Source: Escherichia coli
GTDB lineage: Bacteria > Pseudomonadota > Gammaproteobacteria > Enterobacterales > Enterobacteriaceae
DNA: 64,000 bases
NCBI RefSeq assembly: GCF_003018255.1
Contig: NZ_CP027440.1
Reading direction: 5' to 3' (one strand)
Below are positions 41,628 through 47,617 of this stretch, piece by piece. The notes under the pieces are model-generated. The model had not been told where the DNA came from. It worked only from the letters and a program-made list of their open reading frames with translations, and made no database searches. A program made the position numbers and the translations under genes. Each line of letters opens with the position of its first letter. The stretch's first letter is position 1.

Positions 41628-42341
41628 TCAGCTTTTGAAGTGATATCTGCCTTCTTCGGTCATCTCTAATATCAGATTGGCCTGACGACTATTCACCAGC
41701 ACACGCTCGACATTGGGACCATCGGTTCGGGCATAAAAAGCTTCGGCTTCTTGCCGCGATAATCCTCCCGCAATTTTACGACTAATCAAGCGCTCCCGCA
41801 GAATTTGAGCAGGTGCATGAATAAAAATAGAAAAATCGCAGAAAGATGCCAACTCCTGCCACTTTTCATCATCCAGTAATAGCCAGTTTCCTTCGACGAT
41901 GACGAGGGGTGCGGTAACGTGCAGCGCATCTTCAACAGGATCATGCTTTTGTCGATCGTACTGCGGCCACGTACAATCCCCTTCCACAACCCGGCACAGA
42001 TTTTCCGCCAGTTTCGCAACGTTGAATGTCTCTGGTGCGCCTTTGAAGGGGCGCAATTGATGCGCATCCAGCCAGCTATTGTAATGGTGAAAACCATCCA
42101 TCGGCAGCGTCTGTATAGCGGGTAGTTCCGGGTCTTGTTGCGCGAGATATTCCCAGAAGGTGGTTAGGGTAGATTTACCCGTCCCCGGCGGAGCGCAAAG
42201 AAAAACCACCGTACGCCGCTGCGGATTTACCGTCTGTAAGGCCGCCAACATGCGCAGCAACGGTTTATGTACATTTTCTATCTCATCAACATGGTACTGT
42301 GCTTGTACCTTCAGACCATTCACCGTTAATTCAATTTTCAC
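41628..42341 (-). CDS. yggC: P-loop nucleoside/nucleotide-kinase-like protein YggC (237 aa)
   Basis: ORF 41628-42341; Walker A GTGKST; apparent GTG start overlapping the yggD stop. Confidence 0.75.
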   Translation of the reverse strand: MKIELTVNGLKVQAQYHVDEIENVHKPLLRMLAALQTVNPQRRTVVFLCAPPGTGKSTLTTFWEYLAQQDPELPAIQTLPMDGFHHYNSWLDAHQLRPFKGAPETFNVAKLAENLCRVVEGDCTWPQYDRQKHDPVEDALHVTAPLVIVEGNWLLLDDEKWQELASFCDFSIFIHAPAQILRERLISRKIAGGLSRQEAEAFYARTDGPNVERVLVNSRQANLILEMTEEGRYHFKS

Positions 42342-42847
42342 GGCGTTAATTCCTTTAAGGTGGTCGTTACTGCCAGCGTCAGCGCCGTTTTGACCATCCC
42401 GCTAAAACGCGCCTCTGACCAGACGGCGAAATCGGCGAACTTCATCGCTTTCAACGCGTCATAGAGAGTCGCATTGCGGGTTATGCTATTGACGTTGCTT
42501 ATAAAATCCCAGGTCATGTCATCGGCAAATCCGGGCGTTTCATCCTGTTCGTTCAGGTAATGCCAGAACTGGGAAAAATGCGTGATATCGGCGTACAGCC
42601 ATTTATCCATTTTCCCCAGCGCATAAATCAAACGCAGCGCAACATCAATATCGTCAAGCGGGCCGCTTTGGGCGAGTAACGGCTTCACTGCATATTCGAC
42701 GATCTCTTCATCATTATCGACAAACAGCGACGGCAGAAACTGGCGTATCCCCTGGAGCAAAATAGAATGCGCAGTTTTCATAAATGAAAATAAATTGTCC
42801 TGTGCCTCCAGTTGCTCAAGCACATCATCTTCTGTCAGCGTCGCCAT
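42338..42847 (-). CDS. yggD: MtlR-like transcriptional regulator YggD (169 aa)
   Basis: ORF 42338-42847; position between yggC and the yggF remnant. Confidence 0.75.
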   Translation of the reverse strand: MATLTEDDVLEQLEAQDNLFSFMKTAHSILLQGIRQFLPSLFVDNDEEIVEYAVKPLLAQSGPLDDIDVALRLIYALGKMDKWLYADITHFSQFWHYLNEQDETPGFADDMTWDFISNVNSITRNATLYDALKAMKFADFAVWSEARFSGMVKTALTLAVTTTLKELTP

Positions 42848-42868
42848 TGGTCTTCCGATAGATCACCA

Positions 42869-43184
42869 TCAATGCAGGGAGTCTATTATATTACACGTTT
42901 GGTCCGCGCCGCCGATCAGTAATGTCTGCGTCCGCACCCCATTCGCCGTCTGTTGGATACCGTTCACCAACTCGCCGCCCGTCACGCCCGTAGCGCTAAA
43001 GAGGATATCGTTCCCCCTCGCCGATAACCACTCGCCCACGAAAAGCGACGTCGTTTAATGCCTGGCGCATCGCGGTGACCGCCAGGCCATCAATTTTATT
43101 TTTGTCGCCACATCCGGTTTGCGGCCAGGCAGCCAACGCTGCCTGTTCCGTAACGCGAAATAATGGCCACGCCAGGGACATCAT
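42869..43184 (-). pseudogene. yggF: Remnant of class II fructose-1,6-bisphosphatase gene yggF (GlpX family): about 56 N-terminal codons joined out of frame to about 40 C-terminal codons
   Basis: Track ORF 42996-43184 ([20 protein letters not shown]...VVIGEGE) is a GlpX-type N-terminus ending in a premature TAG; the +1 frame of the same DNA continues ...[49 protein letters not shown] to a stop at 42869; only about 0.33 kb remains where a roughly 1-kb gene is expected. Confidence 0.6.
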
Positions 43185-44458
43185 TGCGCGGCCTCCCCGA
43201 TATCAACGCCAAATTGCGCCAGCAGATATTTCTCGGCCTGCTCATTCCAGATGCCGTGCGTTTCCTCAACCAGCCGCGCCAGCTCTTTAAACAGCGGATC
43301 GGTTTTGCCTTTTTCGGCAAAATCGGCAATGGCAGTGAGCGGCATGGTGACGCCGTTATAAATGAGTTTTTTACCGCCGGGGATATCCGGCAGATTGAGC
43401 ACGGTATCAGGCACCGCATCCAGCCCACCGATATGGGTCACCATAAACGACGGCTGCAACTGCCCTGTGGCGCTAAGCGCAATCGCCTCTTTCATGTCGT
43501 CCGTTGAACCGCCGGACGTACCGACGACATGCGTGCTGTTGTAATGGACGTTGTAGAAATTAAACGGCACTTTGAAGTTTTTATCCGTCGGCCCGGCAAA
43601 GAAGTTCAGGCAGCCATCTTCCGCCAGTAATTCATCAGCCATCTCGACGACTGAAGGCACCGCTGCATAGACAAATACGTCATCAAATCCGGCATCATCC
43701 GTCAGCGCCCGCAGCGTCTGGACCGGATCGCTCATCCCTTTGGTATTCATATACACCAGCTCAATGCCTTTACTGGCCGCCAGTTCCACCGGCAGCAGCT
43801 TTTGTACCTGCGCCAGGCGTTTGTCGTCGATATCGACCACCACCACCCGCGACGGTTGTATGCCGCCGTTAATAGCATAATCGATAGCGCCAATGCCCAT
43901 CGGACCAGCACATGCCAGCAGCGCAATATTGCCGCCAGGTTTAACGCCCATGCGATGCTCATAAACATATTGCGTGGTGTGATAATTGGCATGATAAGCG
44001 CCAATAATGCAGCACATAGGCTCTGCCAGCGACGCCGCAGCAAAATAAGAGCCGTGATACGGTAATACGCAGCCCAGGTTAATGGCTATTTCAGGAATAA
44101 TCATATAGGTGGCGTTACCGCCAAAATATTCGTAGCTGTAGCCTGCTGAATATCCGCTTGGTAACCCCATTGCCGGTTGCAATACAAAACGCTGGCCTTT
44201 TTTATATTTGTCGGTGAGATTTTTACCCACTTCGACAATAACCCCGGCGCATTCATGCCCGGTAATGACCGGATGATTTTCTAAATCGTCGGGTACGCGT
44301 TTATGTTCACTACCGAGTAGCGCCGCTTTCCAGGTGGATAAACACACGCTGTCAGAAATCACACTCACCAGCAGTTCATTATCGGTAATTTCTGGCAGTT
44401 CAAATTCGCGCAGACGGACATCCCGCTTGCCATAAATAGCAGCAACTTTGGTTTTCAT
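43181..44458 (-). CDS. yggP: Zinc-binding MDR-family dehydrogenase YggP (425 aa)
   Basis: ORF 43181-44458; N-terminal GroES-like and Rossmann regions. Confidence 0.75.
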
Positions 44459-46332: not shown

Positions 46333-46708
46333 AAATAATCCTTATTTTATTTTTAGGGCACCGTCCGGCGGTAAAAATAAAATACTCGTGCGGTTTAATG
46401 AAAGCAATTGGGTACGCGAGAAGAAAAACCCCATGAACAAAAATAATAAAACTTTAAATAACAACAACATGAAATTGATATTTTTAAAGTCAACTTTGTA
46501 TTTGTTATGTTTATCACAAAATCAACATTTTGATTGTTGTTGTATTTGTGATACATATCGCCATTTATTTATTGAATGTCCGAAAGCATACTTTTCTAAT
46601 GCAATGTTTTTTCGCTATACCCCTTTATAGATTCTGAATTCTCACCTGTCGGCTATTTTCTCCTCACCTCATGTGACATATTCCCCACTTTACTCAAGGA
46701 AGATTCAT

Positions 46709-47617
46709 ATGAAAGCACCTGTTTCAATAACCTCATTTCGCCCACAAAAATCTATTGCTATCGTCATTGGCGTGCTTGCCGTGGTTGTGCTGCCATTTCT
46801 CTCGTATTACACCGTTAATGAAGGTGAACGCGGCATTTTGCTGCGCTACGGAAAAATCGTAAAAGTTGCCGAGCCGGGTCTGGGTTTTAAGATCCCTTTT
46901 ATGGAAAGCGTGGAGAAAATTTCCACGCGTAATCAGGCTGTGGTTTATCAGGGATTACAGGCCTACAGCCGCGACCAGCAACCGGCACAAATGACAGTAT
47001 CAGTCAGCTTCCACATTAAACCTTCAGAAGCAGGCGCGGTTTATACCACCTACAACACCATTGAAGCATTAAAAGATCGTCTGATTGTCCGTCAGTTGCC
47101 AACTCAACTGGAGAACGTTTTCGGCCAATATACCGCCATCAGCGCCGTACAGGATCGTACAAAACTGGTTCAGGATCTACAAAATGCAATGCGTAAAGCC
47201 GTTGTTGGCCCGGTGGTGATTGATGGTGTCCAGATTGAAAATATTGATTTTTCTGACGCTTATGAAAAATCGATTGAAGATCGAATGAAAGCAGAAGTCG
47301 CCATTGCCACACGTAAGCAAAATCTGGAAACAGAGAAAATCCAGGCGCAAATAGCGGTAACTCAGGCCCAGGCAGAAGCAGACAGTAAACTGGCGGCAGC
47401 CAAAGCAGAAGCTGAGACTATTCGCGTAAGAGGCGCGGCAGAGGCTGAAACTATTCGTTTAAAAAGTGCGGCTGAAGCAGAAGCGATCCGCCTGCGCGGT
47501 GAAGCTCTGCGGGATAATCCCGGACTTGTTGCCCTCACCACTGCTGAGCGTTGGGACGGTAAGCTACCCGATACCATGATCCCCGGCAGTACAGTTCCGT
47601 TTATCTCTACTAAGTAA
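46709..47617 (+). CDS. SPFH/band-7 (stomatin/prohibitin/flotillin/HflKC-like) membrane protein, 302 aa, stand-alone
   Basis: ORF 46673-47617 trimmed to the ATG at 46709 with AAGGAAG 6 nt upstream; one N-terminal TM helix, SPFH core, C-terminal Ala/Glu-rich tail with tandem AEAETIR-like repeats; not at this position in K-12 as I recall. Confidence 0.8.
   Translation: MKAPVSITSFRPQKSIAIVIGVLAVVVLPFLSYYTVNEGERGILLRYGKIVKVAEPGLGFKIPFMESVEKISTRNQAVVYQGLQAYSRDQQPAQMTVSVSFHIKPSEAGAVYTTYNTIEALKDRLIVRQLPTQLENVFGQYTAISAVQDRTKLVQDLQNAMRKAVVGPVVIDGVQIENIDFSDAYEKSIEDRMKAEVAIATRKQNLETEKIQAQIAVTQAQAEADSKLAAAKAEAETIRVRGAAEAETIRLKSAAEAEAIRLRGEALRDNPGLVALTTAERWDGKLPDTMIPGSTVPFISTK

Follow-up and report, generated by a model that had tools for sequence, protein, structure and literature searches.

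The yggF locus

The window (the whole 64,000-nt stretch of Escherichia coli DNA analysed here) exhibits on its minus strand the gene order cmtB-cmtA-yggP-yggF-fumE (yggD)-yggC, where yggP/yggF and fumE/yggC each overlap by 4 nt. This confirms the cluster order and the tight or overlapping minus-strand junctions proposed in an earlier reading of the sequence alone. The features relevant to yggF are the following.

41628..42341, minus strand: yggC, nucleoside/nucleotide kinase family, last gene of the cluster, intact, of the K-12 haplogroup (NF006742, 504 bits)
42338..42847, minus strand: fumE (yggD), intact (NF007455, 334 bits)
42848..42995, minus strand: untranslated stretch from the premature TAG to the fumE start, 148 nt (21 nt in the intact gene)
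42869..43184, minus strand: whole yggF remnant, 316 bp, with the original ATG (43184-43182) and the original TGA (42871-42869), aligned to both ends of the intact 966-bp yggF (K-12, GPEC1210)
42869..43014, minus strand: C-terminal fragment, YggF residues 273-321, in the +1 frame relative to the start codon
42869..43039, minus strand: GTG-started ORF over the C-terminal fragment, 56 aa, reading ...IIDSLH and then a stop
42996..43184, minus strand: N-terminal fragment ORF, 62 aa, authentic YggF residues 1-58 followed by four out-of-frame residues (RYPL); TAG at 42996-42998
43011..43019, minus strand: deletion junction, where one copy of the 9-bp direct repeat GAGGGGGAA remains; within these 9 bp the breakpoint is unplaceable
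43181..44458, minus strand: yggP, zinc-binding dehydrogenase, intact; its stop overlaps the yggF start by 4 nt

The N-terminal ORF starts with MMSLAWPLF and closes with RYPL and the TAG codon. Both fragments match the NCBIfam glpX equivalog TIGR00330, the N-terminal one over profile positions 2-59 (E-value = 1.4e-25, 90.1 bits) and the C-terminal one over positions 273-322 of 334 (E-value = 6e-19, 68.4 bits). The sequence-only reading, which had described a GlpX-type N-terminus running into a TAG and a GlpX-type C-terminus in the +1 frame, was thus correct on both ORFs. Both scores are far below the curated full-length cut-off of this profile (259.3 bits, about 334 positions), and neither fragment qualifies as a full-length member. 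With 650 bp gone and the frame shifted, no single uninterrupted frame of about 320-340 codons with the catalytic core is left. Descent from the GlpX family is evident from the location of the remnant between yggP and fumE, and from the near identity of its kept parts to intact alleles.

E. coli GlpX, a protein of known structure (1NI9/3D1R), can be aligned with intact YggF over the full length (E-value = 5e-111). The DPIEGT segment of intact YggF and GlpX, which we regard as contributing to the metal-binding core in the Li+-sensitive phosphatase superfamily, falls in the deleted part. Having lost about residues 59-272 and its frame, the remnant is unable to encode a fructose-1,6-bisphosphatase (FBPase), and its 62-aa stub cannot act as one. 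The window yggF is a pseudogene, a dead gene and not a functional GlpX-family member. On reading the sequence, no Shine-Dalgarno-like sequence was seen 5' of the GTG of the 56-aa ORF (42869..43039), which is most likely an annotation artefact. RefSeq labels the N-terminal part a pseudogene ("incomplete; missing C-terminus"). The PGAP call for the C-terminal remnant varies between genomes: in some it is a 56-aa "fructose-bisphosphatase class II" (WP_369808866.1), in others a 32-aa "hypothetical protein" (WP_250146959.1). The two small CDSs of the remnant should become one pseudogene in the annotation.

Deletion end points and a 9-bp direct repeat

Intact yggF is 966 bp long (321 aa) in K-12 MG1655 (b2930, "fructose 1,6-bisphosphatase YggF") and in seven other strains. 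Explicit prefix/suffix matching of the window to intact yggF alleles sets the end points of the deletion, and its size is exactly 650 bp. As this corresponds to 216 codons plus 2 nt, the reading frame shifts. The remnant retains residues 1-58 in frame and residues 273-321 out of frame, and lacks about residues 59-272. The sequence-only reading had estimated a loss of "roughly 200" central codons with a frame change; the frame change stands, and the size is now 216 codons plus 2 nt. It had placed the junction at about 43005-43020 in the G-run, a range that contains the true junction (43011-43019), at which a run of five G is located. The reference gene encodes 321 aa and is not the gene of only about 100 codons that would have spoken against a deletion. 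The alignment to K-12 yggF and the check for microhomology suggested with that reading yield the 650 missing bp and, in an AR_0055-type allele, a 9-bp direct repeat at the end points.

The AR_0055/EC958-type intact allele exhibits GGCGAGGGGGAAATT at the left site and GGTGAGGGGGAACGA at the right site, 650 bp apart. In AR_0055 the left site reads GGC GAG GGG GAA and the right site GGT GAG GGG GAA, and the two contain GAGGGGGAA as a perfect 9-bp direct repeat, with copies exactly 650 bp apart. Two synonymous changes (GAA GGA to GAG GGG, codons 56-57) make the AR_0055 left site match the right site. In the other seven intact alleles the left site is GGC GAA GGA GAA, with the exception of GPEC1210 (GAG GGA GAG). 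The in-register match to the right site is only 3-5 bp in those seven, and only 3 bp in the K-12-type. When GPEC1210-type alleles are taken as the reference, the ambiguity at the junction shrinks to GAGGG (43015-43019). The 9-bp repeat is likely to have been the substrate for a single slipped-mispairing deletion.

A nearby substitution is linked to the junction. In a sample of 10 deletion carriers and 8 intact alleles, CDS position 150 (15 nt upstream of the junction) is G in 10/10 carriers and in AR_0055, and A in the 7 other intact alleles; the window has G.

Distribution among E. coli genomes

A 91-nt probe across the junction exhibits a full-length match in 557 of 5426 complete E. coli genomes. 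A 281-nt junction probe finds 556 of the 5426, half-matches being removed by an E-value cut. The window matches across the junction ungapped and at full length. Deletion carriers include CFT073, UTI89, 536, S88, APEC O1, IHE3034, ABU 83972, Nissle 1917, ATCC 25922 and NC101, as well as the type strain DSM 30083 and an "EcST1193" record. The junction string GGCGAGGGGGAACGATATC is identical in the ten sampled carriers (10/10), and the window exhibits this signature of the B2 allele. In their Table 5, Touchon et al. (2009) gave yggF as one of the functions "absent" from group B2 strains specifically (PMC2617782). In the same table yggF is without the flag given to genes that stay B2-specific once E2348/69 is included (PMC2617782). 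The event, treated in the sequence-only reading as possibly strain-specific or artefactual, is neither: the survey of other lineages proposed with that reading finds the same junction in 556-557 of 5426 complete genomes, RefSeq already annotates a pseudogene, and the loss in B2 is published. The yggF deletion is a real, ordinary and already documented lineage allele, present in about 10% of complete E. coli genomes.

A 90-mer of the intact haplotype carrying the 9-bp repeat is found exactly in 546 genomes. This haplotype occurs in EC958, JJ1886, several records titled O25b:H4-ST131, SE15 and E2348/69. B2, with phylogroups and strains assigned here from record titles, Touchon et al. and background knowledge, is divided between strains that keep the deletion-prone intact allele and strains with a deletion that would derive from that allele. 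Such a split, with E2348/69 on the intact side, fits the missing flag for yggF in the table of Touchon et al. The allele is a handy lineage marker, separating the ST131/E2348/69-type (intact, with the 9-bp repeat) from the CFT073/UTI89/536-type (deleted).

A different loss is observed in ET210 (NZ_CP100987.1, 3248-4497), where an IS1B abuts a 5'-truncated fumE, and cmtB, cmtA, yggP and yggF are all missing. This is an independent loss of the locus.

Consequences of the loss

FBPase activity in E. coli has been assigned to four proteins, Fbp, GlpX, YggF and YbhA, among which YggF is less efficient than Fbp (PMC8719807). A K-12 yggF knockout exhibits somewhat poorer fermentative growth on glycerol, and its aerobic use of glycerol is unimpaired (PMC8719807). 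Transcription of cmtB, the first gene of the cluster, starts from a promoter that CRP activates (PMC3105977). Given a minor FBPase and a mild knockout phenotype, the loss of yggF is expected to be nearly neutral under most conditions. In itself the loss matters little: the FBPase is redundant, the absence from B2 has been tabulated since 2009, and the pseudogene is annotated in RefSeq. A selective advantage of the loss may be envisaged, in which the allele, having arisen once in B2, reached fixation in major extraintestinal-pathogenic lineages before short-tract homologous recombination spread it to unrelated backgrounds. We consider such an adaptive origin unlikely. If true, it would exemplify the horizontal spread of a loss-of-function allele, with two synonymous substitutions having made the 9-bp deletion substrate beforehand.

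An effect beyond yggF is considered unlikely. The premature stop might be strongly polar and silence fumE and yggC, or frameshifting at the run of five G at the junction might rejoin the two fragments into a mini-protein. The genes are indeed tightly packed on one strand, and 148 nt are left untranslated instead of 21. However, this untranslated stretch has a G content of 34% and a C content of 23%, and none of its 78-nt windows exceeds a C/G ratio of 0.95. Being G-rich and C-poor, it would be a poor Rho loading site; it is not the long, C-rich and G-poor untranslated stretch associated with Rho-dependent polarity. No terminator-like site or hairpin was found in the yggF remnant or in the untranslated stretch. 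Furthermore, yggP, fumE and yggC are full-length in 10/10 sampled carriers. Their pN/pS ratios are similar with and without the deletion (0.07, 0.28 and 0.25 in carriers; 0.07, 0.22 and 0.26 where the allele is intact). As a test for silencing this comparison is weak, as much of the divergence may predate the deletion or be imported, and recombination mixes old and new variation. In K-12, (yggDC) is listed as a separate operon (Shimada et al. 2014, PMC3946193). A promoter scan of the cluster gave nothing above the shuffled expectation, and literature on the operon or expression of yggF, yggD or yggC in B2 strains was limited, in what we found, to K-12 operon tables. As for a mini-protein, a fused product without residues 59-272 could not be an FBPase. 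The polarity on yggD and yggC that had been raised as a possibility from the sequence alone is thus without support, strong polarity in particular, and yggP, fumE and yggC are probably still expressed.

Two yggC haplogroups, about 15-17% apart in DNA, are observed in E. coli. The K-12-type yggC is directly followed by epd in the window, JNE23-011, Rb-50, K-12 and GPEC1210. In CFT073, EC958, STEC379, strain 143 and others, the second type precedes convergent ABC/ECF transporter genes. Both haplogroups occur with intact and with deleted yggF.

The backbone of the window

The window exhibits 97.2-97.4% identity to CFT073 and EC958, being about 2.7% from both of these B2 references, and 98.3-98.7% identity to GPEC1210 and JNE23-011. 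Over positions 1-25000 no complete genome exceeds 98.7% identity, the closest being JNE23-011 and JNE112863. At 43-47 kb the window is identical to JNE23-011, which is also a deletion carrier, and at 48-59 kb it is near-identical to GPEC1210, whose yggF is intact. Within the N-terminal remnant, the window has the general haplotype at positions 72, 102 and 138, yet the B2-type G at 150. The combination of the window's upstream haplotype with the 9-bp repeat is absent from all 4851 genomes whose left region is intact. The backbone of the window, in which no formal phylotyping marker is located, does not look like B2, and the allele most likely arrived by recombination.

As a whole, the window is a mosaic produced by recombination, and its lineage is poorly sampled; blocks identical to JNE23-011 are located at 43-47 kb, 53 kb and 63 kb. 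Sharp peaks of divergence reach, for example, about 10% from JNE23-011 (50-51 kb) and about 12% from GPEC1210 (61-62 kb). Two other differences from K-12 were observed. Between cmtB and tkt the window has a prohibitin-family (SPFH) gene (46673-47617, plus strand); it is also present in CFT073, EC958, GPEC1210 and JNE23-011, and K-12 has only a 314-bp cmtB-tktA gap. Between speA and speB, CFT073, GPEC1210, EC958 and JNE23-011 have a 732-bp "hypothetical protein" gene that K-12 lacks. The K-12 coverage of the window falls at 51-53 kb, which fits the presence of this speA-speB gene in the window too (about 51-52 kb).

The same 650-bp deletion could instead have arisen separately, at a repeat hotspot, in the lineages of the window, JNE23-011 and Rb-50 and in classic B2. 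Short direct repeats are deletion hotspots, the N-terminal remnant haplotype of the window-type carriers is different (CATGGC versus CCTGTT), and their yggP is far from that of CFT073 (the window yggP, identical to that of JNE23-011, differs from the CFT073 gene at 72 of 1278 sites). We nevertheless judge such a recurrence very unlikely. Like all B2 carriers, the window-type carriers have G150, at a distance of 15 nt from the junction. The precursor combination that recurrence would require is found in none of the 4851 intact alleles, and most non-B2 alleles share just 3-5 bp in register. The region is visibly mosaic, so recombination suffices for the observed pattern. As informative sites are scarce in the remnant (7 for its N part and 10 for its C part, over 19 alleles), identity by descent between the window and B2 copies is argued here from the junction, one linked SNP and the absent precursor rather than from a resolved tree. 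A precursor allele could exist outside the sampled genomes. The flank haplotypes (yggP, fumE, yggC) are reshuffled among the carriers, and the flank phylogeny is no proof of a single origin.

An assembly or sequencing artefact, by which an intact yggF would have been collapsed at the G-run, is rejected as highly improbable: the junction does lie in a homopolymer-rich stretch, and one public assembly (HH97) exhibits an obvious poly-C artefact exactly there, but an identical junction is present in 556-557 independently assembled complete genomes, obtained by many technologies, and a 650-bp loss between 9-bp repeats is untypical of homopolymer errors. In HH97 (NZ_CP116409.1, about 2545-2720) a nearly pure poly-C tract of about 130 nt is found at the junction, almost certainly due to assembly or polishing, and leads PGAP to annotate two separate partial pseudogenes. 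HH97 was considered as a second, different deletion allele, and rejected: it has the same junction, interrupted by the poly-C tract.

Discussion

Taken together, we hold with high confidence that yggF was killed by a single repeat-mediated deletion on a B2 haplotype, and that the resulting allele was then recombined into the lineage of the window. Two synonymous changes, on a haplotype found in B2, would have generated the perfect 9-bp repeats 650 bp apart. A single ancient 650-bp deletion between these repeats would have followed, probably by replication slippage or microhomology-mediated deletion. The allele would then have been fixed in a large part of B2 (CFT073, UTI89, 536, Nissle 1917) and not in ST131 or E2348/69. 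Finally, homologous recombination would have carried it into the non-B2-looking lineage of the window, with a breakpoint about 12-150 nt upstream of the junction. We infer the slippage, the single origin and the transfer by recombination from the size of the deletion, its junction and repeats, the distribution of the allele and the mosaic flanks. On this account yggF would be a clean natural case of synonymous changes making a deletion-prone repeat. The presence of the allele in a non-B2-looking backbone would likewise illustrate that recombination moves even dead alleles among E. coli lineages. The origin of the 9-bp repeat from synonymous changes, the split inside B2 and the transfer into a non-B2-looking backbone are details that may be unreported, and are incremental.

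Comparison with known systems

The remnant is orthologous and syntenic to K-12 YggF (b2930), a class II (GlpX-type) fructose-1,6-bisphosphatase, both being located between yggP and fumE. Its 311 retained nucleotides differ from intact alleles at only 0-3 positions. The K-12 gene is intact, whereas the window remnant lacks the 650 bp encoding about residues 59-272, is frame-shifted, and reaches 90 and 68 bits against a 259-bit cut-off.

Another close counterpart is the yggF pseudogene of B2 extraintestinal-pathogenic strains (CFT073, UTI89, 536, S88, APEC O1, Nissle 1917), which exhibits the same junction and the same remnant length, with 98.2-98.9% identity to the window over 281 nt. In contrast to these, the window copy is on another upstream haplotype, with a yggP 5.6% from that of CFT073, and adjoins a K-12-type yggC without the ABC/ECF transporter island downstream.

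Deletions between short direct repeats by RecA-independent slipped mispairing have reportedly been described, as a classical case, for lacI in E. coli. There, as in yggF, one repeat copy and the spacer are lost and one copy is left. For yggF it is the scar in the sequence that points to this mechanism.
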